From Thermodesulfobacteriota bacterium (lineage in GTDB: Bacteria > Desulfobacterota > GWC2-55-46), in the NCBI GenBank assembly GCA_030583865.1, contig CP129479.1, forward strand, positions 1,476,744-1,540,743: DNA of 64,000 bases. The letters run 5' to 3'. The notes under the pieces were generated by a model. That model ran no database searches. It was given only the letters and a program-made list of their open reading frames with translations, and had not been told where the DNA came from. Shown in pieces: positions 1 through 56,413 of the stretch. The translations under genes were made by a program, and so were the position numbers. Within the stretch, counting starts at the first letter, position 1. Each line of letters opens with the position of its first letter.

Positions 1-53
1 TGGCAATCCGTCCGTGGATTGCCTGGCATGGTGTTTTTCAACACCCTGTCAGA
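1..53 (+). repeat. repeat family A (two-hairpin PATE-like element), 3' part, truncated by window edge
   Basis: tggcaatccgtccgtggattgc...gtgtttttcaacaccctg matches 35448-35500 and revcomp of 55081-55130. Confidence 0.8.
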
Positions 54-261
54 GCGTGTTGGCGACCTTCTGGAGCACCTCCATGAAAGCGGCGAGGCCG
101 CTTACCGGGATGACCACCGTGCTCCGCCTGTCGTTGGAGAGCTCGGCTACCTGCAGGAACCTGCCGCCTTCGTTCTCCTTCAGGTCCACGAACAGGGTCT
201 TGTTCTCTATATGCAATTTCTCGCTGGAAAGGACCTTGCTTTTTGCGCCTTCCCTTTTCAT
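49..261 (-). CDS. PUR-alpha-like (DUF3276-type) small nucleic-acid-binding protein
   Basis: 71-aa [73 protein letters not shown]. The F-x-DLKEN-x-GGRFL ... RRS-x-VIP-x-GL-x-F pattern matches bacterial Pur-like repeat proteins. Start ATG overlaps the leuD stop (ATGA). Stop codon lies inside repeat family A copy. Confidence 0.45.
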
Positions 262-7046: not shown

Positions 7047-7090
7047 CTAGTTTTCGCAATCCGTATAGTCGCTTTACGCTTTTAGCTTAT

Positions 7091-7232
7091 GGCAACCTCT
7101 AAAAATCAGAAATTTTTCCTGCAATCAAGGAAGGGCGGGAATAAAAAGCGGAGCATATATGTGAATATGTGAGCATTTTTATTCACGCCCTGACGCAGAG
7201 TCCGGGTAAAATAGCAATTTTTAGAGGTTGCC
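7091..7232 (+). mobile_element. MITE family B copy 1 (16-bp TIR GGCAACCTCTAAAAAT ... ATTTTTAGAGGTTGCC)
   Basis: Perfect 16-bp terminal inverted repeats; flanked by TTAT/TTAT; between ilvC start and ilvN stop. Confidence 0.85.
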
Positions 7233-7718
7233 TTATCTCTGCTTGGGGCTCCGGGCCATTGCCACCCTTCCGGTCCGGACGATCTCCTTTATGCCGAATG
7301 GGCGGAGTAGCTCGGTAATGGCCCGTATCTTCTCCTCGTCCCCGGTTATCTCTATCGTGTAGGTCCGGGAGCTTACGTCAACGACCTTGGCCCTGAATAT
7401 GTCGACTATCGAGAGTATCTCGGCCCTGGTCTCGGCGTTGAGGTTCACCTTTATGAGGGCGAGCTCCCGCTCGATATGCTCCTCGCCGGTGAAGTCGTAT
7501 ACCTTGATGACGTTCACGAGCTTGTTCAATTGCTTGTTTATCTGCTCGAGGACTTTGTCGTCGCCGCTCGTGACGATGGTCATCCGGGATATCTTCGGGT
7601 CGAAGGTCTCGGCCACCGAGAGGCTCTCGATATTGAAGCCCCGCCCGGAGAAAAGTCCCGATATGCGCGATAGCACGCCGAACTCGTTGGTTACAAGGAC
7701 CGATATCGTATGACGCAC
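7233..7718 (-). CDS. ilvN: acetolactate synthase small (regulatory) subunit
   Basis: 161 aa; ACT domain ISVLVTNEFGVLSRISGLFSGRGFNIESL. Confidence 0.9.
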   Translation of the reverse strand: MRHTISVLVTNEFGVLSRISGLFSGRGFNIESLSVAETFDPKISRMTIVTSGDDKVLEQINKQLNKLVNVIKVYDFTGEEHIERELALIKVNLNAETRAEILSIVDIFRAKVVDVSSRTYTIEITGDEEKIRAITELLRPFGIKEIVRTGRVAMARSPKQR

Positions 7719-11713: not shown

Positions 11714-12436
11714 TTAGCGACCGCTTTTAAGCTCTGCTTCGGATTTCCGGAGGTATATCGGGACGAGCTCCGCCGGAGAGACGGCCTCCGCCGCGTGCTC
11801 GAAAGCCAGGAGCCCTACGTTAGAAGCCCTTATGTGCCAAAGGTGGGGCAAGGCCGCGTACGCGTCCCTGAGCGCCTCGACGAGCATTTCCATGTAAACG
11901 GAAAGGCCGCTCCCCAGGAATACGACTTCCCCCTCAAGCCCCCTCCCCCTTATTTCCCCTATGAGGGCCTCGGGCCGCATCGCCGAATCGGGCATGACCG
12001 CCCTGGGGCGGCCTGACATGGTATCGTAAAGGGCGGTGTATACCTCGCCCTTTCTGGCGTCGAGCACCGGGCAGACCATCCTTGCGGAATAAGGGATGTT
12101 CATGGCGAGCGAGGCGAGGGTCGAAACACCGGCTATCTTTTTCCCCTGCGGCCACGCGAGCCCCTTTAGGGCCGATATGCCGATGCGGAGGCCAGTGAAT
12201 GAGCCCGGGCCGACATCAATGGCGAAGAGGTCTACTTCGTCGAGCCCGCACCCGGCGCTCTCAAGGTGCGCTTCAAGGGACTTAAGGAGCCAGCTGGAAT
12301 GGGTCCCCGCGTCCCCGACGGTCCATTCGGAGATGAGCTTTCTATCTTCGAGGAGGGCTATCGAGCCTGACCGGGACGAGGTATCGATTGAAAGTATCTT
12401 CAGGCAACCTCTAAAAATTAGATAATTTTCCCGCAA
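11714..12436 (-). CDS. tsaB: tRNA threonylcarbamoyladenosine biosynthesis protein TsaB (YeaZ)
   Basis: KILSIDTSSRSGSIALL and VGPGSFTGLRIGIS motifs. The annotated ATG start (12434-12436) lies inside the MITE copy at 12403-12545, so the true start is uncertain. Confidence 0.7.
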   Translation of the reverse strand: MRENYLIFRGCLKILSIDTSSRSGSIALLEDRKLISEWTVGDAGTHSSWLLKSLEAHLESAGCGLDEVDLFAIDVGPGSFTGLRIGISALKGLAWPQGKKIAGVSTLASLAMNIPYSARMVCPVLDARKGEVYTALYDTMSGRPRAVMPDSAMRPEALIGEIRGRGLEGEVVFLGSGLSVYMEMLVEALRDAYAALPHLWHIRASNVGLLAFEHAAEAVSPAELVPIYLRKSEAELKSGR

Positions 12437-12545
12437 TCAAGAAAGGGCGGAAATAAAAAGCGGAGCATATATGTGAATATGTGAGCATTTTTATTCACGT
12501 AACCTACGCAGAGTCCGGGGAAAAGGTCAATTTTCAGAGGTTGCC
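12403..12545 (+). mobile_element. MITE family B copy 2
   Basis: Same termini (1 mismatch); internal segment aaaaagcggagcatatatgtgaatatgtgagcatttttattcacg identical to copy 1; flanked by TTCA/TTCA. Confidence 0.85.
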
Positions 12546-12553
12546 TTCAATGC

Positions 12554-13855: not shown

Positions 13856-13896
13856 TTCCTATCTCAATTCAAGCGTGATTTTGGCGTAAATTTCTG

Positions 13897-13998
13897 GCAG
13901 CCCCTAAAAATCAGAGATCTTCACCCGAATCAAGGAAGGTCGGGGTTATTCCCGGCCTGACGCAGAGTCGGGGAAAAGATCAATTCTTAGAAGTTGCA
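13897..13998. mobile_element. MITE family B copy 3 (shorter, degenerate)
   Basis: ggcagcccctaaaaatcag ... caattcttagaagttgc; shares gcctgacgcagagtcgggg core with copy 1. Confidence 0.55.
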
Positions 13999-14033
13999 TT
14001 TATTATACAATAAATTGCCGGCCAGTGTCGCGC

Positions 14034-29796: not shown

Positions 29797-29900
29797 TTGG
29801 GGGAAACTTTCTATAGAAAGTTTCCCCCCACCCCCCCTTCAAAGATTAGTTGTTCCTGAGATGACCCCCATGAATGGGGGTCATCTCAGGAACAACTAAA
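29797..29900. repeat. palindromic repeat family C copy 2
   Basis: Perfect palindrome ggaaactttctatagaaagtttcc (29802-29825) flanked by C/G runs; perfect 24-bp-stem hairpin tagttgttcctgagatgaccccca / tgggggtcatctcaggaacaacta (29848-29898). Sits in the 5' region of the archaeal-type MAT gene. Confidence 0.7.
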
Positions 29901-33879: not shown

Positions 33880-35337
33880 GTGTTTATGGACCATGCCGAC
33901 CGACACGGAACAGAGGGAGAGCTGGAGAGGCTCAGAAGGCGGGTAAGGGAGTTGGAAAAAAAAGAGGCCGAGCACAGGCGGAGCCTCGAAGAAAACCCCG
34001 CCACCATAGAGGCCCTTATGGGGTATATACCGGAGGGCATCATAATAGCCTCCGCGCCTGACGAGACCGTGAGGATGGCAAGCAGGGAGGCGCTACGCAT
34101 GTCGGGGAACGGCGGGGAAAGCATCGAGGGGCTAAAGCTCAAGGACCTTGCCGGCAAGTGCCCGGTCTACCATCCGGACGGCAGGAAGCTCAAGGAGGAG
34201 GAAAACCCGCTTTTCATCGCTCTCCGGGAAGGCCGGGTCATAAGCGACATGGAGTTCACGCTCCGGAGGCCCGACGGGAGCGAGATATTCGTCCTCGCCA
34301 ACGCCGGCCCGGTCTTCGATAAATCCGGTAAGCTCCTGGGCGCGATAGTCTCATGGAGGGACATAACCGCTAGGAGGAGGGCCGAGCAGGCCGTCTTAAG
34401 GGAACGGGGGCTCCTTAAAAGGGTGCTTGCCATATTGCCCGTGGGCGTGTGGATACTGGACGGTAGCGGCAACATCGTGGAGGGGAACGAGGAGGGACAG
34501 AGGATCTGGGGCGGCATAAAGCAGGTCGGCATCGAGGGCTACGGCGAGTACAAGGCATGGTGGGCGGAAAACGGCAAGCCCATCCCGTCGCACGAATGGG
34601 CGGGCGCAAGGGCCATTGAAAGGGGCGAGACCTCCGTAAGCGAAGAGGTGGAGATCGAGGGCTTCGACGGGGCGCGCCGGTTCATAATCAATTCGGCTGT
34701 GCCGCTCACCGATGAAAAGGGCGGGATAACCGGCGCGGTCACGGTAAACCAGGATATAACGGCGAGGAAGCTCGGCGAAAGGATGCTCGCCGAGGCCCAG
34801 CGTACGGCAAGGCTCGGGAACTGGATATGGGAGCCTGAAAGGGACCAGATATGCGGCTCGAGCGAGGCGTACAGGATATTCGGCCTCCGGGAAGGTCAGC
34901 CCATGAACATGGAGGAGTTCATAAAGATGGTGCATCCGAACGACAGGGAGGCACTCAACAACGCCATAAGTGACGCGCTCGCCGGAGGCGGCGGGTACGA
35001 GTTCGACTTCAGGGTGGAGGTCAGGGGCGAGACTAAATACGTCCAGGCCATCGGCAGGACCGAGTTTCGTAACGGAAAACCGGTGGCCGTAAGGGGCACG
35101 GTCCAGGACATTACGGAACGGAAGAGGACGGAAAACGAGCTGAGGGAGGCGCTCGCCCGCATAAAGACCCTTAGCGGCCTCATACCCATCTGCGCGAACT
35201 GCAAGAGGATCAGGGACGACAGGGGCTACTGGATGAGAATAGAAAAATATATAGAAGACCGCTCCACCGCCGAATTCACGCACAGCCTCTGCCCGGACTG
35301 CGAAAAACGGCTTTACGAAGATGACAAGGCTGCCTGA
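33880..35337 (+). CDS. signalling protein with three PAS/PAC domains and a C-terminal Cys4 zinc-ribbon-like tail (no kinase or GGDEF output)
   Basis: 485 aa; three PAS S-box repeats each ending with DIT(A/E)RK; tail IPICANCKRIRDDRGYWMRIEKYIEDRSTAEFTHSLCPDCEKRLY. One of only two plus-strand genes. Confidence 0.7.
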   Translation: MFMDHADRHGTEGELERLRRRVRELEKKEAEHRRSLEENPATIEALMGYIPEGIIIASAPDETVRMASREALRMSGNGGESIEGLKLKDLAGKCPVYHPDGRKLKEEENPLFIALREGRVISDMEFTLRRPDGSEIFVLANAGPVFDKSGKLLGAIVSWRDITARRRAEQAVLRERGLLKRVLAILPVGVWILDGSGNIVEGNEEGQRIWGGIKQVGIEGYGEYKAWWAENGKPIPSHEWAGARAIERGETSVSEEVEIEGFDGARRFIINSAVPLTDEKGGITGAVTVNQDITARKLGERMLAEAQRTARLGNWIWEPERDQICGSSEAYRIFGLREGQPMNMEEFIKMVHPNDREALNNAISDALAGGGGYEFDFRVEVRGETKYVQAIGRTEFRNGKPVAVRGTVQDITERKRTENELREALARIKTLSGLIPICANCKRIRDDRGYWMRIEKYIEDRSTAEFTHSLCPDCEKRLYEDDKAA

Positions 35338-35340
35338 TCG

Positions 35341-35500
35341 GCCTATCAGGACGTTGAAAAAGTCTTTCCTGGACTTTTTCAACCACGGCCTGGCCGGAAT
35401 GAATCCGTCCAAGCCTCATAAATTGCTCGACATTTTCAGCCATTGCAATTTGGCAATCCATCCGTGGATTGCTTAGCAGGGTGTTTTTCAACACCCTGCT
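35341..35500 (+). repeat. repeat family A, full copy (hairpin 1 at 35353-35383, hairpin 2 at 35475-35500)
   Basis: ~90% identical to revcomp of 55078-55245. Terminal hairpins gttgaaaaagtc..ggactttttcaac and agcagggtgtttttcaacaccctgct. Lies between convergent stop codons. Confidence 0.85.
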
Positions 35501-36908
35501 ACCCCCTTTTCCACCCGGAAGGGGCGCTCCCCGGCCCCTTTATGCCCAGCTCGCGCATCTTGAGGAGGAGCGTATTCCTGTGGATCTTGAGCGCCCTCGC
35601 CGTTTCAGCCCTGTTCCAGTTGGCCTTGTCCAGCGCGCCTTTTATGTAGCGCCTCTCGAAGGCCTTGACCGCTTCCTTGAAATCCAGCGTCATCTCCTTT
35701 CCCGGAGCCGCCTCGTCCGCTAGCGCCGGCATGCCCATCGGCAGGTCGTCGGCCCTTATGAGACCCCCCTCGGGCGCGAGCACCACGAGCCTTTCCAGGA
35801 GGTTTTCAAGCTCCCTGATGTTCCCGGGCCACCCGTAATCCATGAACGCCCTTATGACCTCCGGATGGACCCCCTCCACCCTCTTGCCGCACTTCTTGGA
35901 GAGCTTTTCGAGGAAATGCTCGACGAGCAAAGGCACGTCCTCCTTCCTCTCCCTCAAGGGCGGGAGCTCTATGGGCACAACCTTGAGCCTGTAGAAGAGG
36001 TCTTCCCTGAAGCGGCCCGCCGAGACCTCGTCCTCAAGGCGCGCATTCGACGCCGCTATCACCCTTATGTCGATCGTGATGGAAGAATTCGAGCCGACCC
36101 TTTCGAAGGACCTCTCCTGCAGCACCCTTAGGAGCTTTATCTGGAGGTGCATGGGTAGCGTCGATACCTCGTCAAGGAAGAGCGTGCCAGTGTCGGAGTG
36201 CTCGAACTTCCCGATCTTCCTCTGGTGCGCCCCGGTGAAAGCCCCCCTCTCGTGCCCGAAGAGCTCGCTTTCCATGAGCTCTGATGGCACCGCCCCGCAG
36301 TTCACGGCCACGAAGGGCTTCTCCCTCCTGTCGCTCATGAAATGAATGGCCCTTGCGACGAGCTCCTTGCCGGTGCCGCTCTCGCCCGTTATGAGCACCC
36401 CTGACGAGGTCCTGCTCACCGCCTGCATGAGCCCGAAAACCTTCCGCATCGCGGGCGACCTGCTTATCATCTCGCCGTTCAGGTACCTGAGGCCGTTCCG
36501 CTCGTTAAGCTCTTCCTTGAGGAACTCGATTTCGCTCTTGAGCTTAAGCCCTTCGGACAGCCTCGATAGTGTGGCAAGGAGCTCATCCCCGTCAAAGGGC
36601 TTGGCTATGTAGTCGTAGGCGCCTTTCCTGAGGGAGGATACCGCCTGCTCGGCGCTGTCGAGGGCGGAGAGCATTACGACCTCGATCGAGCCGTCGAGCT
36701 CCTTCAACCGCCCGAGCGTTTCAAGCCCGTCCATGCCCGGCAGCTTAAGATCCAGGAGCACTATTTCCACCGGCCTCGAACGTGCCAGAGAGAGGGCCTC
36801 ATGGCCGGTCCGGGCCTTCAGGACCTCATAGCTCTCCCTGAGGAGTATCTCGAGCGCGCCCGTTACGAAATCGTCGTCGTCCACTACGAGGACAAGTGGT
36901 TTTCTCAT
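35499..36908 (-). CDS. sigma-54-dependent response regulator (NtrC family: REC-AAA+-HTH)
   Basis: VLVVDDD receiver; GESGTGKE Walker A; GAFTGA sigma54-contact motif; C-terminal HTH. Stop codon lies in terminal hairpin of repeat A copy. Confidence 0.85.
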   Translation of the reverse strand: MRKPLVLVVDDDDFVTGALEILLRESYEVLKARTGHEALSLARSRPVEIVLLDLKLPGMDGLETLGRLKELDGSIEVVMLSALDSAEQAVSSLRKGAYDYIAKPFDGDELLATLSRLSEGLKLKSEIEFLKEELNERNGLRYLNGEMISRSPAMRKVFGLMQAVSRTSSGVLITGESGTGKELVARAIHFMSDRREKPFVAVNCGAVPSELMESELFGHERGAFTGAHQRKIGKFEHSDTGTLFLDEVSTLPMHLQIKLLRVLQERSFERVGSNSSITIDIRVIAASNARLEDEVSAGRFREDLFYRLKVVPIELPPLRERKEDVPLLVEHFLEKLSKKCGKRVEGVHPEVIRAFMDYGWPGNIRELENLLERLVVLAPEGGLIRADDLPMGMPALADEAAPGKEMTLDFKEAVKAFERRYIKGALDKANWNRAETARALKIHRNTLLLKMRELGIKGPGSAPSGWKRG

Positions 36909-37085
36909 GCAAGCTACCGCCGCCTGTTTTCTGAGGAGTCGCGCCATTTGCCCTGACCATTCACAAAAAATGTATTAATGAACCAATAGTAACATCTTGT
37001 GACTGAATGTCAAGGCAAAATACATTTTTAATTTAAACTGACAGGCCCAGGGCGAGATGAGTGTTTCCGGTTGTTGGAGGGCTTT

Positions 37086-38462
37086 TTATGCCAGATCTGC
37101 TGAAGCGTCTTCGTTCTCTATCCCATAACTCCTGATTTTTCTATAAAGATGACTCCTTTCTATGCCTATGGCCTCGGCGGTCCGGGCGATGTTCCCCCCG
37201 AACTCCTTGAGTTTCCTTGAGATGAATTCCTTTTCAAAGTCCTTCCTGGCCTCCTTGAGGAGATCGCTCCTGGAGATGAAGCCAGGCTGGACGGACTGGG
37301 AACCTTTGATATACGCAGGGAGGTCGCCGGACGTTATCGTATGGGAATGGGTCATTATGACGAGCCTCTCCATGAGGTTCTTAAGCTCCCGGACGTTCCC
37401 CGGCCAGTCGTACGAATAAAGCATCTCCCTGGCCTCGGGGCTTACGGAGAGGACTTCCCTTGCCGTCTCCCGCGCGAACTCCTTGAGGAAATGCTCCATC
37501 AAAAGGGGTATGTCTTCCCTCCTCTCCCTCAAGGGCGGGACATGGAACGGTATCACGTTGAGCCTGTAATAGAGGTCTTCCCTGAACCTCCCTCTTGCGA
37601 CCTCCTCGCTCAGGTTCTTGTTGGTGGCGGCGATCACCCTGGTATCGACCGTGATGAGCTCGGTCCCCCCCACCCTCTCAAAGCTCTTCTCCTGGAGGAC
37701 GCGGAGTATCTTGGCCTGTGTCCTGAGGCTCATGTCCCCTATCTCGTCCAGGAATATGGTGCCCTTGTCGGCCAGGTCGAACTTGCCCTTTTTCTGGGCC
37801 AGTGCGTTCGTGAACGCGCCCTTCTCATGCCCGAAGAGCTCGCTCTCGATAAGCTCTTCGGGAATTGCCGCGCAGTTGACCTCGATGAAAGGCCTTCCCG
37901 ACCTGGTCGAGAGGAGGTGTATGTTCCTTGCGACAAGCTCCTTGCCGGTGCCGTTGTCACCGGTTATGAGTACCCATGAATTGGACGGGGCCGCCTTCCT
38001 TATATCGGCCTTGAGCGACTGTATGGCCTGGGAGCCGCCTATTATCTCGAACCTGGCGCCGACCTTCTGCCTGAGGTTGCTGTTCTCCTCGGTAAGCCTC
38101 TTCTGCTCTATGGCGTGCTCGACCGTAAGGGTGACCTTTTCGAGCGAGAGCGGCTTTTCGATGAAGTCGTAGGCCCCGAGCTTGGTCGTCCTTACGGCCG
38201 TGTCTATGTTGGCGTGCCCGGATATCATTATGACCGGCAGGCCCGGGTGCCTTGATTTAATCTCCTTCAGGGCCTCGACCCCGTCCATGCCCGGGAGCCA
38301 GATGTCCAGGAGCACGGCGTCGGGCTGCCTGACCTCGAGTTTCTTAAGCCCCTCCTCGGCGCTACCGGCGGTAACGACCTCGTGCCCCTCGTCCTTGAGG
38401 ACGCCTAGGAGCGCTTCCCTTATCTCTTTTTCGTCGTCGATTACCAGGACTGTCGTCTTCAT
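37086..38462 (-). CDS. ntrX: sigma-54-type response regulator, NtrX-like
   Basis: 458 aa; REC + AAA+ (GDNGTGKE, GAFTNA variant) + HTH; 4-nt overlap with upstream kinase. Confidence 0.78.
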   Translation of the reverse strand: MKTTVLVIDDEKEIREALLGVLKDEGHEVVTAGSAEEGLKKLEVRQPDAVLLDIWLPGMDGVEALKEIKSRHPGLPVIMISGHANIDTAVRTTKLGAYDFIEKPLSLEKVTLTVEHAIEQKRLTEENSNLRQKVGARFEIIGGSQAIQSLKADIRKAAPSNSWVLITGDNGTGKELVARNIHLLSTRSGRPFIEVNCAAIPEELIESELFGHEKGAFTNALAQKKGKFDLADKGTIFLDEIGDMSLRTQAKILRVLQEKSFERVGGTELITVDTRVIAATNKNLSEEVARGRFREDLYYRLNVIPFHVPPLRERREDIPLLMEHFLKEFARETAREVLSVSPEAREMLYSYDWPGNVRELKNLMERLVIMTHSHTITSGDLPAYIKGSQSVQPGFISRSDLLKEARKDFEKEFISRKLKEFGGNIARTAEAIGIERSHLYRKIRSYGIENEDASADLA

Positions 38463-41245: not shown

Positions 41246-41439
41246 GGAAGTATTCGGCTTTGCTGCTTTTTATAATGTGGAAATTAATTCCTTTCAGGAA
41301 GAAGAACCCGAATCTTGCCCTGGTTCTCCGGCCTGAAAAGAATGATACCGGATTCCATTATCAAAAGCAATGACAGCGGCCCTGGCAAAGAGGGATGAGC
41401 GCATGACGAGTAGCCCCGCCGTTTGAGGGACTGACTAAA

Positions 41440-41580
41440 GGCAATCTCTAAAAATCAACCTTTTACCCGGATTCCGTTCAGACGTGGATGAAAATGCACA
41501 CATATTTATCATGCATGTATGCATCGATTTTTATTCCCGGCCTTTATTGCGGGAAGAATCTCAAATTATCAGAGGTTGCT
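41440..41580. mobile_element. MITE family B copy 4 (diverged)
   Basis: ggcaatctctaaaaatcaa ... aattatcagaggttgct termini; different internal sequence. Confidence 0.55.
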
Positions 41581-54161: not shown

Positions 54162-54880
54162 CTCAGCAGGTTGAACTTGACTATGTGCCAGAACGCGGCC
54201 ACTCCGTCCTTCCAGTTTATCTTCTTCCCCTCGTCGTAGGTGCGGCCCGCGTACGAAACGGAAGTCTCGTATATCTGGCATTTTTTCTTGGCGACCTTTG
54301 CCGTTATCTCGGGCTCGAAGCCGAACCTGTCGGACTCGATCCTTATGCCCTTCAGGACCTCGGTCCTGAAGGCCTTGTATCCGGTCTCCATGTCCGTAAG
54401 GTTCAGGTTCGTGAGCATGTTGGAGAAGAAGGTGAGTACCTTGTTCCCGACCGAGTGCCAGAAAAAGAGGACCCTGTGGGACTCGCCGCCTATGAACCTT
54501 GAGCCGTATACCACGTCGGCCTTGCCGTCGAAAATGGGCTGGAGGAGTTTTGGATAGTCCCTTGGGTCGTACTCGAAATCCGCGTCCTGGATGATGGTTA
54601 TGTCGCCGGTAACATGGGCGAAACCGGTCCTCAAGGCCGCGCCCTTCCCCTGGTTCCTTTCGTGCATGAGGAGCCTCAATTTCACTCCCTTTTCGTTCCA
54701 ACCCGCCTCTATGCCTTTGAGGACGTCCCTGGTGCCGTCCCTCGAGAAGTCGTCCACTATGACAAGCTCGCCGGGTATCCCGGTGTCAATCACCCTTTTT
54801 ATGACCTTGGAGACGTACTCCCTCTCGTTGTAGACAGGCATTACTATCGATACGCTCATCTTTTCAGTCGGCATAACCAA
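54158..54880 (-). CDS. family 2 glycosyltransferase (DPM1-like)
   Basis: SVSIVMPVYNE, DDFSRDGT and QDADFEYD motifs; true start may be M8 (54859). Confidence 0.8.
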   Translation of the reverse strand: MVMPTEKMSVSIVMPVYNEREYVSKVIKRVIDTGIPGELVIVDDFSRDGTRDVLKGIEAGWNEKGVKLRLLMHERNQGKGAALRTGFAHVTGDITIIQDADFEYDPRDYPKLLQPIFDGKADVVYGSRFIGGESHRVLFFWHSVGNKVLTFFSNMLTNLNLTDMETGYKAFRTEVLKGIRIESDRFGFEPEITAKVAKKKCQIYETSVSYAGRTYDEGKKINWKDGVAAFWHIVKFNLLR

Positions 54881-55077
54881 TGACTCCCGGCCTTACTTGG
54901 CTTTCGCAAGGCCCGCCTATCAAGACAGGCGGGCCTTGTGAACTTATACAATAAAAGCGCGCTGAAATCCACTCCTCTGCCTCGCCAACGAATTATTGGA
55001 TATTGCCGCCTGAACTGGTATAATCGACCCGCTCCGCCTGATGCGCGTTTTTCAGATATGGGCCGCCGGAAGTTTCT

Positions 55078-55245
55078 TTTAGCAGGGTGTTGAAAAAACA
55101 CCCTGCTAAGCAATCCACGGATGGATTGCCAAATTGCGAAGACTATCCAGGTCGAGCAATTTGTAAGGCTTGGACGGATTCATTCCGGCCAAGCCGTGGT
55201 TGAAAAAGTCCAGGAAGGACTTTTTCAACATCCTGTTAGAGGAAA
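55078..55245 (-). repeat. repeat family A, full copy in inverted orientation
   Basis: Reverse complement matches 35341-35500; 50 bp upstream of the cytochrome c start. Confidence 0.85.
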
Positions 55246-55285
55246 TCCTGACGGCCCATTTAAAATCCATAAACGAGAGGTGCAG

Positions 55286-56413
55286 ATGAAGGCAAGACAA
55301 TCTTTTATCCTGCTTGCATTTTTGCTGGCGGGGCCGCTTACGTCCGAGGTTGCGTTCGCGGAGAGCAAGTTCATGAAGAGCTTCAGGACGAGCTACGAGC
55401 AGAACAGGTTCGACGCCCTGGGGTTTCTCGTCAAGACCAACAAGGACATAATACCCGGCGAGATACGCTCCCTCCTGGACGAGGCCAGGGCTGCCGAGGG
55501 GTTTGAAAAGAAGATGGCGATCCTTGACCTCGCGGCCACGATGGCGACCATGTACGGCGAGTGGCACGGCCAGGACGGGTTCATTGGCGAGATAGAAGCC
55601 ATGCAGAAAGAGGAGATGGGAAAAGAGGAGGAGAGAAAGGCCGAGCTGGAGAAATGGAAAAAATACGAGGCCTTTCCGGGCAACTTGCTCATGAGGGAAA
55701 AAGCCGAGGCAGCCGGCATGGCGCCAGTCATCTTCCCCCATTGGGTCCACAGGATCAACTTCGAATGCAAGGCCTGCCACCCCGCGCCCTTTGAGATGAA
55801 AAAGACCGGCTCAATAGGCATGACGGAGATATTCGGCGGCGGCCTTTGCGGGAAGTGCCATAACGGCACGACAGCGTTCAGCGCCGCCGAGGACTGCGAA
55901 AGATGCCACAGCGTGGGCACGCCGGGCGAGGCCCATCTCCTGGACCCGAAAAAAGCCTACGTCTCGAAGCTCAAAGAGACCTCTGAACGGCTCGGGACAG
56001 GGCTGAATCTCGACCTCCTCCCGGGCAAGGCCCTGCCTTACGACAGGTTCGGCAACATAGACTGGGGCCTCCTGGGGAAGGCCAGAAAACCGATAAAATC
56101 GATTGAGGGGGCCCCTGCCGATAAAGCGGACGAGACGAGGGACAACGAAATACTCTTCGAGTCTCCCATGCCCTACGTGAACAACGTCGTCTTCAGCCAC
56201 AAGACCCATTCGGAAAGGGTCGTGTGCTCGTCCTGCCACCAGTCTTTCTTCAAGGACCAGCTCGGCGCCAATACCGCCAGCATGAAGGACATGGCCGAAG
56301 GCGCCTCCTGCGGCGCGTGCCATCAGAAGGTGGCCTTCAAGTTCGCCGACTGCAACCGCTGCCATTCCAGGCCCGTGGCCGAGGACGCCGGTGGAGCGCT
56401 TAAGAGGAAGTAG
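55286..56413 (+). CDS. secreted multihaem (six CxxCH) c-type cytochrome
   Basis: Starts MKARQSFILLAFLLAGPLTSEVAFA (signal) after GAGAGG RBS; haem motifs CKACH, CGKCH, CERCH, CSSCH, CGACH, CNRCH. The upstream ORF extension to 55121 is encoded by repeat A copy C. Confidence 0.8.
   Translation: MKARQSFILLAFLLAGPLTSEVAFAESKFMKSFRTSYEQNRFDALGFLVKTNKDIIPGEIRSLLDEARAAEGFEKKMAILDLAATMATMYGEWHGQDGFIGEIEAMQKEEMGKEEERKAELEKWKKYEAFPGNLLMREKAEAAGMAPVIFPHWVHRINFECKACHPAPFEMKKTGSIGMTEIFGGGLCGKCHNGTTAFSAAEDCERCHSVGTPGEAHLLDPKKAYVSKLKETSERLGTGLNLDLLPGKALPYDRFGNIDWGLLGKARKPIKSIEGAPADKADETRDNEILFESPMPYVNNVVFSHKTHSERVVCSSCHQSFFKDQLGANTASMKDMAEGASCGACHQKVAFKFADCNRCHSRPVAEDAGGALKRK

Follow-up and report, generated by a model that had tools for sequence, protein, structure and literature searches.

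Plant genomes harbor Tourist elements, miniature inverted-repeat transposable elements, or MITEs, of the PIF/Harbinger superfamily, i.e. of eukaryotic relatives of the IS5 group, which use a TAA/TTA-type target and duplicate 3 bp. In enterobacteria and pseudomonads, extragenic palindromes of the REP/BIME/REPIN type are concentrated at gene 3' ends; many REPs are no more than 15 nt away from a stop codon and affect how stable an mRNA is and how it is translated. The Correia/NEMIS elements of Neisseria and the RUP elements of pneumococcus are IS630-type MITEs that can affect neighboring transcripts (PMC2229807). IS5 is known to duplicate the sequence 5'-YTAR-3' upon insertion (PMC5009759). Here, we analyzed Repeat A, a family of 152-nt repeats with three copies in a 64-kb stretch of contig CP129479.1 from a Thermodesulfobacteriota bacterium (hereafter called the window; all coordinates are positions in the window), two of which directly adjoin the stop codon of a neighboring gene. 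With a probability of roughly 90%, we consider Repeat A to be a non-autonomous MITE derived from an IS5-family DDE element, which duplicates a target of the YTAR class and for this reason is found on the stop codons of intact genes. This reading builds on terminal repeats, 4-bp duplications, empty sites, native C-termini, IS5-type partners with the same ends and an enrichment at stop codons, all of which were observed directly. The pattern is real, and its explanation is ordinary transposon behavior, not a new use of the repeat. In a limited literature search, which is no proof of absence, we found no prior description of this repeat family or of stop-codon capture by the duplication of an IS5-type element or MITE.

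Among the described systems, the IS5 group (NF033581) and its MITEs resemble Repeat A most closely in that they show a 15-nt terminal inverted repeat (TIR), a 4-bp duplication of the YTAR type and, in the full-length insertion sequence (IS) L099, the same left 40 nt including the first of its hairpins. Unlike IS5 ISs, Repeat A lacks a transposase gene, is only 152 nt long and uses a target relaxed to CTAA/CTAT. Moreover, in contrast to both IS5 ISs and their MITEs, its body does not form a single long foldback from end to end but a series of five local hairpins, and its right end is a palindrome composed of an inner TIR-like arm and the true TIR. With Correia/NEMIS and RUP elements Repeat A shares that it is short, non-coding, bounded by TIRs, TA-containing, mostly intergenic and stably folding. 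Those elements, however, duplicate only TA (2 bp) and are linked to IS630-type transposases, whereas Repeat A shows a 4-bp duplication and IS5-family partners and hence falls outside the IS630 type. Like REP/BIME/REPIN sequences it is found as extragenic palindromes at gene 3' ends; yet REPs carry a GTAG/GTGG head, are linked to RAYT tyrosine transposases and have neither a TIR pair nor a target duplication, whereas Repeat A possesses both. Tourist elements are likewise non-autonomous derivatives of an IS5-related DDE transposon that insert into and duplicate a TAA/TTA-type target, but they are eukaryotic, duplicate 3 bp and have no relation to the stop codons of compact genes.

The Repeat A family was collected by scanning one genome per species with the sequence of hairpin 4 (described below), which yielded 26 further copies in three uncultivated Desulfobacterota metagenome-assembled genomes (MAGs). 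In total, 35 full copies are available from the window, the three MAGs and related metagenome contigs. Their alignment results in a 152-nt core, CAGGATGTTGAAAAAG...TTTTTCAACACCCTG, whose ends are 15-nt TIRs (CAGGRTGTTGAAAAA) common to IS5-family ISs; CAGGAYGTTGAAAAA at the left end and CAGGGTGTTGAAAAA, which is the right end in reverse complement, are conserved across the 35 copies. Repeat A is thus short (152 nt), multi-copy (three times in the window, with 35 full copies overall) and devoid of a transposase gene, and it shows both the terminal inverted repeats and, by comparison of filled with empty sites, the target-site duplication that characterize MITEs. Directly outside both ends, nearly all copies carry CTAA, CTAT or a close variant. 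The left and the right 4-mer are identical in 13 of the 34 independent insertions compared to 8.2 in shuffles (P = 0.016), and the variable fourth flank base agrees between left and right in 20 of the 34 (13.1 in shuffles, P = 0.005). A duplication of TA only, as in IS630-like elements, was rejected, since the bases flanking the TA are copied as well and the full-length partners are IS5-type with identical 4-mers.

Two contigs contain copies that are joined through one common flanking 4-mer (...GTTTTTCAACAGCCTG-CCAA-CAGGATGTTGAAAAAG...; left flank of L147, right flank of L018). Such abutting copies are expected, because the duplicated YTAR of one insertion can be the target of the next. The exact 22-mer of hairpin 4, TGGCAATCCATCCGTGGATTGC, is also present in two Rhodoferax MAGs (L010, 4014-4035; L015, 3987-4008), where it belongs to another palindrome of greater length (CATTGCGAG...CTCGCAATG) that lies in or next to a gene. 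These two matches were not accepted as Repeat A copies, since the remainder of the element is absent; with about 0.3 chance matches expected, they may be due to chance.

The core of copy 2, as defined by the repeat alignment, spans 35347-35498 on the plus strand (CAGGACGTTGAAAAAG...TTTTTCAACACCCTG). It can be aligned with the 34 other Repeat A copies, and 146 nt of it are 90% complementary to 55094-55239. Copy 2 is located between two convergent genes, encoding a PAS-domain protein (33880-35337, plus strand) and a sigma-54-dependent response regulator of 482 amino acids (35499-36947, minus strand; Pfam Response_reg, Sigma54_activat and HTH_8). On the plus strand it is preceded by CTAT (35343-35346) and followed by CTAC (35499-35502). 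The first three bases of the latter (cta, 35499-35501) are the native TAG stop codon of the regulator, which therefore directly adjoins the last core base, 35498. The TGA stop of the PAS gene (35335-35337) is situated 5 nt before CTAT and 9 nt before the core (35347) and was left untouched by the insertion. Of copy 1, which is old and degenerate, only the right-hand 48 nt are present (1-48, plus strand; 92% identical to 35451-35498), as it is cut by the start of the window; it is complete in contigs L029-L034, which carry an identical PurA-like protein. The gene of this PUR-family protein (49-261, minus strand; 70 amino acids, Pfam PF04845) ends with a TGA (tca, 49-51) directly next to base 48. 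Each of the two stop codons thus adjoins a Repeat A copy at its CCCTG end. The right duplication of copy 1 (49-52, plus strand) now reads TCAG and, judged from the empty sites L166-L168, was probably TTAG at the time of insertion. Copy 3 lies on the minus strand (55079-55239 including its 4-bp duplications; core 55083-55235) and shows a perfect duplication, CTAA...CTAA on the minus strand or, on the plus strand, TTAG at 55079-55082 and 55236-55239.

On re-check, the stop-codon coordinates of the PAS, regulator and PurA-like genes given in the initial annotation all proved correct. Its generalization that the copies sit on the stop codons of convergent genes applies to copy 2 only: the neighbors of copy 1 are co-directional (leuC, methyltransferase, leuD, purA-like, copy 1, leuB) and constitute a leu operon, while copy 3 touches no stop codon and is found between the starts of two divergent genes, encoding a GT2 glycosyltransferase (minus strand, 54880) and a multiheme cytochrome (plus strand, 55286).

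Whether the two stop codons belong to the genes or to the element can be decided by comparison with orthologous loci that lack the element. For the regulator, orthologues with 93% (P0002) and 86% (P0003) identity are found in the same gene order without Repeat A (L155 and L156). The locus of the 86% orthologue (L156) has the sequence ...ggg tgg aag agg gga TAG gcc TCA..., where the stop of the PAS gene, on the other strand, is only 3 nt away from that of the regulator. The corresponding stretch of the window is ...ggg tgg aaa agg ggg TAG / CAGGGTG...CGTCCTG / ATAG gccga TCA... (slashes mark the element boundaries). L156 thus contains a single CTAT, corresponding to GATAGGCC on the regulator strand, where the window has CTAT before and CTAC after the element; the site in L155 is empty as well. 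The insertion was precise, turning one (A/G)TAG into two, and the regulator ends in GWKRG followed by the stop with or without the element. At the PurA-like locus, the spacer of a 97% identical lineage (P0122) is about 155 nt shorter. Here, the empty allele (L166-L168) reads AAC ACC CTG TAA GG and the filled allele AAC ACG CTC TGA / CAGGG...CATCCTG / ATAA. The C-terminus, VANTL followed by the stop, is the same in the filled and in the empty alleles (P0122-P0124), and all 16 of 16 PurA-like orthologues are 70-71 amino acids long with the same C-terminal register. The target of copy 1 would accordingly have been CTAA at a native TAA stop, the gene-side copy of which later changed from TAA to TGA with the stop retained; the other duplicate is still TAA in L029.

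Because the empty-site orthologues agree with the window genes in the position of the stop as well as in the C-terminus, both stop codons in the window are native, and they lie in the duplicated target, outside the element proper. We had also considered CTA as a part of the element, as in hairpin 5 it is paired with an inner TAG and apparently co-varies; for the window copies the empty sites rule this out. The initial annotation had suggested that the edge of the element itself is used as stop codon by the regulator and PurA-like genes, and had asked for a comparison with element-free loci in order to see whether native C-termini were truncated. The triplet belongs to the duplicated target instead, and neither C-terminus was shortened. 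Identical C-termini in element-free orthologues were also the first of the two findings which the initial annotation had named as speaking against its view. As a separate observation, in L166-L168 (around 1700-1716), where the last PurA-like codons are AAC ACC CTG TAA, the terminal 9-mer of the element, AACACCCTG, is found exactly at the empty insertion site; this may be a coincidence or may hint at a preference for targets that resemble the element end.

The presumed source of Repeat A emerged from a metagenome scan with the exact left 19-mer CAGGATGTTGAAAAAGNCC, which returned at least 120 loci (L035-L154), the superfamily being larger than this sample. Among the matches listed, this 19-mer forms the beginning of a wide variety of short elements from metagenomes of soil, sediment and groundwater, with a very common short form of about 125 nt or about 200 nt (...GTCCGCCAGCTTTGTTCTCGC...GGCCTTTTTGAACATCCTG(...GTTTTTCAACAGCCTG)) that is flanked by CTAG. 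The scan also contains three full-length ISs with the same ends, of 1331 bp (L047, flanks TTAA/TTAA), 1318 bp (L098, flanks CTAG/CTAG) and 1347 bp (L099); the left 40 nt of L099, including hairpin 1, are common with Repeat A. Their transposases (360-366 amino acids) possess the domains DUF772 and DDE_Tnp_1 (PF05598, PF01609) and score 256-274 bits against the NCBIfam model NF033581 'IS5 family transposase' (cut-off 140). Plasmid pTBH10 of Thiolapillus brandeum carries an annotated IS with a 77% identical transposase and the arrangement TTAG-CAGGGTGTTGAAAAA...TTTTCAACGGCCTG-TTAG, while the nearest named relative in annotated records is ISAzs10-like (transposase 62% identical). A logo of the left flank from 121 superfamily ends among the matches listed yields Y(99) T(98) A(86) R(101). 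Both hallmarks of the IS5 family, a DDE transposase between the same terminal repeats and a 4-bp YTAR duplication, are therefore present. Repeat A was presumably moved by the transposase of such an IS5-family DDE element with ends CAGGNTGTTGAAAAA, and we infer that an IS5-type transposase mobilized it in this host. One IS5 lineage (ends CAGGATGTTGAAAAAG) has given rise to a large variety of MITE families, which are present in metagenomes of soil, sediment and groundwater.

From these properties the position of the copies can be explained as follows. The transposase would cut a 4-bp target of the YTAR class, in this family mostly CTAA or CTAT, and duplicate it on both sides of the element. YTAR is a palindromic class and offers TAA or TAG on either strand, which makes a stop codon with a suitable preceding base a target itself. 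The duplication would leave an intact 4-mer on each flank, and a gene reading inward from either side would keep its stop codon and its last residue. Insertions at stop codons would be harmless and persist, insertions inside genes would be removed by selection, and copies would appear exactly on stop codons because the former spare the gene and the latter are selected out. In compact G+C-rich genomes, where convergent spacers can be as short as 3 nt (L156), stop codons would be among the few harmless places for insertion. Site-specific insertion at gene 3' ends, one of the two options offered by the initial annotation, is hence correct as far as site specificity is concerned; the specificity, however, is for the 4-bp CTAA/CTAT (YTAR class) and not for gene 3' ends as such. 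For genome annotation this means that genes beside these repeats are to be called to the flanking TAA or TAG and not to be treated as truncated.

To evaluate how often stop codons are hit, we counted inward-reading open reading frames (ORFs) of at least 100 codons that end exactly in the flanking 4-mer, the stop being its TAR. This is the case in 15 of 34 independent insertions, six times in the left and nine times in the right flank, i.e. without orientation bias. As a rough null, 8 of 62 YTAR sites that do not disrupt a gene overlap a stop codon (13%), a value which is based on crude ORF-based gene calls in one 64-kb window. Compared to this null, the observed 44% corresponds to a binomial P of about 8e-6, or to P = 0.03 when only the nine most credible genes are used; the coincidence with stop codons thus exceeds chance. 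We infer that the excess over the null stems from purifying selection (against insertions in promoters and 5' regions) rather than from an extra targeting preference. Five of the 15 are full-length genes confirmed by Pfam (RsmH, PanB, M24 peptidase, HlyD-type, UvrA), and RsmH and PanB match their Pfam models to the last residue. In the superfamily, among the matches listed, a stop is found at offset -3 in 31 of 112 left ends, at +8 in 17 and, on average, in about 0.3 for every remaining offset. No less than a quarter of the sampled superfamily left ends hence abut the stop of a long ORF. The +8 class exists because the terminal repeat contains a TGA (GTTGAAAA). The excess of -3 over +8 is significant but modest, both in the superfamily (31 vs 17, P = 0.03, among the matches listed) and in Repeat A (15 vs 4, P = 0.01). 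An example is provided by L041, where the reading frame of a histidine kinase whose HATPase_c domain is complete enters the element and ends, after ...LSGC, at the +8 TGA. Stop codons supplied by the element do therefore occur elsewhere, but not in this window.

Several observations weigh against the proposed explanation. When the window and the MAG loci were searched by tblastn with the partner transposase, none with these ends was detected; the partner ISs are seen only in other metagenome contigs and on the Thiolapillus plasmid. The target of copy 2, CTAT/CTAC, is not a strict YTAR, and CTAT, which is often used by Repeat A, is a one-base departure from it. Furthermore, a subfamily of 6 of the 35 copies has A as first base of the right flank irrespective of the left flank, and this A co-varies with, and is paired to, a T on the inner side of the hairpin 5 stem. 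In its members (two copies in L002, L009, L014, L019 and L041:4823-4984) the inner arm reads TATCAGG and the right flank ATAG, ATAA or ACAG; in L002 and L014 the two flanks are mutually reverse-complementary (AACTAT...ATAGTC). The right flank of this subfamily is not explained by a simple 4-bp duplication, and either its boundary is a different one or the palindrome is being extended. With regard to the stop codons, some of the 15 ORFs are unverified, and Pfam shows the long ORFs L017b and L129 to be spurious (L017 has 545 codons). Any open frame that enters the element is closed at -3 or +8, and spurious ORFs inflate both spikes.

The part of Repeat A which the proposed explanation leaves unaccounted for is its folding. 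The element is predicted to form five local hairpins on either strand, with free energies of -70.3 and -77.8 kcal/mol (z = -7.7 and -8.0). In the minimum free energy (MFE) fold, hairpin 1 (35353-35383, plus strand; GTTGAAAAAGTC / GACTTTTTCAAC) is located on the inner part of the left terminal repeat; 95.9% of its cells are paired across the 35 copies, and the same hairpin occurs at the left end of the L099 IS. Hairpin 4 (35452-35473, plus strand; GGCAATCCA tccg TGGATTGCT) is the most conserved part of the family, with six of nine pairs invariant. Hairpin 5 (35474-35501, plus strand, MFE fold) consists of the inner arm TAGCAGGGTGTT, a loop, the right terminal repeat AACACCCTG and the CTA of the target duplication. 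As proposed in the initial annotation, the regulator stop is thus part of the last, terminal hairpin, CTA at 35499-35501 being paired with TAG at 35474-35476. One stem position of hairpin 5 shows compensatory exchange (G:C 19, C:G 11, U:A 2). Over the 35 copies, 94% of the cells are paired and 44 are double-sided compensatory compared to 17 in shuffles (0 of 500 reach 44). What is counted here is sequences rather than events, and a small number of master-copy changes may underlie the values. Other subfamilies (L117, L123, L148 and others) keep the serial-hairpin plan with unrelated sequences. The hairpins are better preserved than drift alone would predict.

We consider it possible, albeit improbable, that the string of five hairpins together with the terminal palindrome, built from transposon end and host stop, is a selected feature, serving either transposition or the tuning of termination and protection of the mRNA 3' end. 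If the hairpins were needed for transposition, an IS5-type enzyme would recognize a structured DNA end, a property that would be without precedent in that family. If the stop-locking stems were retained for translation termination or for the mRNA 3' end, this would represent a REP-like domestication from a DDE transposon. For general biology, nothing beyond known transposon behavior is established here, and of all its parts only the maintained hairpins could point beyond this.

A role of this kind would imply that the element is kept at gene ends since its hairpins act on the host transcript, be it as bidirectional read-through barrier, as 3'-end stabilizer that counters exonucleases or as brake on translation termination by way of the paired stop codon in the last hairpin, similar to what has been reported for REP sequences. 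Liang, Rudd and Deutscher (2015) reportedly found that REPs within ~15 nt of a stop codon lower translation. The very stable folds on both strands, the high degree of pairing (94%) with its 44 compensatory cells vs 17 in shuffles, the serial hairpins kept by other subfamilies despite different sequences and the enrichment at stop codons above the rough target-availability null would be consistent with such a role. However, scans of both strands of 35100-35750 and 54850-55450 detected nothing that resembles a terminator; in these regions the intrinsic-terminator pattern of a G+C-rich stem followed by a U run is absent, and a promoter scan detected no promoter-like site in the element. Rfam 15 contains no match to Repeat A, neither for the window at gathering score nor for 35300-35540 at E <= 1 nor for eight loci of related subfamilies. 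Mismatches provide no clear strand signal either (G-T 54 vs A-C 36), and the orientation relative to the gene that is hit is unbiased (six left, nine right). Moreover, copy 1 is embedded in the leu operon, in a position upstream of leuB at which termination would do harm, and copy 3 separates the starts of two divergent genes. At both loci, close relatives lack the element, and the covariation, as it counts sequences and not events, may reflect a few master-copy changes. Action on the host transcript thus appears unlikely to be what keeps the element at gene ends, and recruitment as a bidirectional terminator or mRNA stabilizer, the second option raised in the initial annotation, is not needed to explain the coincidence with stop codons and finds no support here: there is no terminator-like site, copies are present in an operon and in a divergent promoter region, and orientation bias is lacking. 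Reading Repeat A as a structured non-coding RNA gene or cis-regulatory RNA that is repeated by chance is far less probable still. Strong predicted structure and some covariation would fit, but both strands fold equally well without clear G-U vs A-C asymmetry, the copies take either orientation relative to the neighboring genes, Rfam gives no match, and the target duplications and empty sites show that the element is mobile.

It is also highly implausible that the element itself supplies the stop codons, i.e. that it inserted into gene 3' ends and cut off native C-termini, with its edge (ccctgcta / ccctgtca) terminating translation. In favor of this, two of the three inward frames are closed within 11 nt at either end, by the flank TAR and by the TGA in GTTGAAAA at +8, and the L041 histidine kinase does end at the +8 TGA. 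Yet the empty-site orthologues of both window genes end at the same codon (L156; P0122-P0124), which refutes this possibility for these two; in addition, the 16 PurA-like orthologues are all 70-71 amino acids long, and RsmH and PanB are complete to the last Pfam residue. Hairpins at both ends, a near-constant tetranucleotide on the left and, in 6 of 35 copies, a first right-flank base that co-varies with an internal base, as guide/cleavage-site pairing would, would fit a REP/BIME-like or IS200/IS605-type (PATE) single-stranded DNA element, which would be moved by a tyrosine HUH transposase with recognition of subterminal hairpins, have a fixed CTAA without duplication and include the right-hand CTA. 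We give this possibility hardly any weight, since the ends are true inverted repeats over 15 nt and full-length elements with the same ends encode DDE transposases of the IS5 family, not HUH enzymes. Those ISs have 4-mers that match on both sides but differ between elements (TTAA/TTAA, CTAG/CTAG, TTAG/TTAG), which indicates duplication and not a fixed end; the variable fourth flank base is copied from left to right, and the empty site L156 has one copy of the 4-mer. A MITE that was derived from an IS5-family element and duplicates a YTAR-class target hence remains the preferred explanation for Repeat A.

Repeats of this kind break short-read assemblies exactly at gene ends. In three independent short-read assemblies with an identical regulator (L170-L172), the contigs break off within Repeat A, roughly 40 nt beyond the stop codon of this gene. 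The regulator next to copy 2 is one of two tandem paralogous sigma-54 response regulators (35499-36947 and 37086-38462, minus strand), whose DNA is 70-74% identical over 170-181 nt at a spacing of 1575 nt; in relatives, an NtrY-type histidine kinase adjoins this pair on the side of the second regulator.

The window contains further repeats and RNA elements. A ZMP/ZTP riboswitch (RF01750; 52176-52263, minus strand) is its sole Rfam match, with 63.5 bits (gathering score 39). Repeat B, a second, unrelated family of about 150 nt, is present at 7083-7234, 12395-12547, 13891-14000 and, in reverse orientation, 41435-41549; with its terminal inverted repeats (AAGGCAACCTCTAAAAAT...ATTTTTAGAGGTTGCCTT) and an internal deletion in one copy it resembles a further MITE. 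Two copies of a 31-nt hairpin (GGGGGAAACTTTCTATAGAAAGTTTCCCCC) are present at 29798-29828 and 2838-2868, with 94% identity. One of these copies is adjoined by a perfect palindrome of 26+26 nt (29846-29899; TTAGTTGTTCCTGAGATGACCCCCAT / ATGGGGGTCATCTCAGGAACAACTAA), located just upstream of a gene start.

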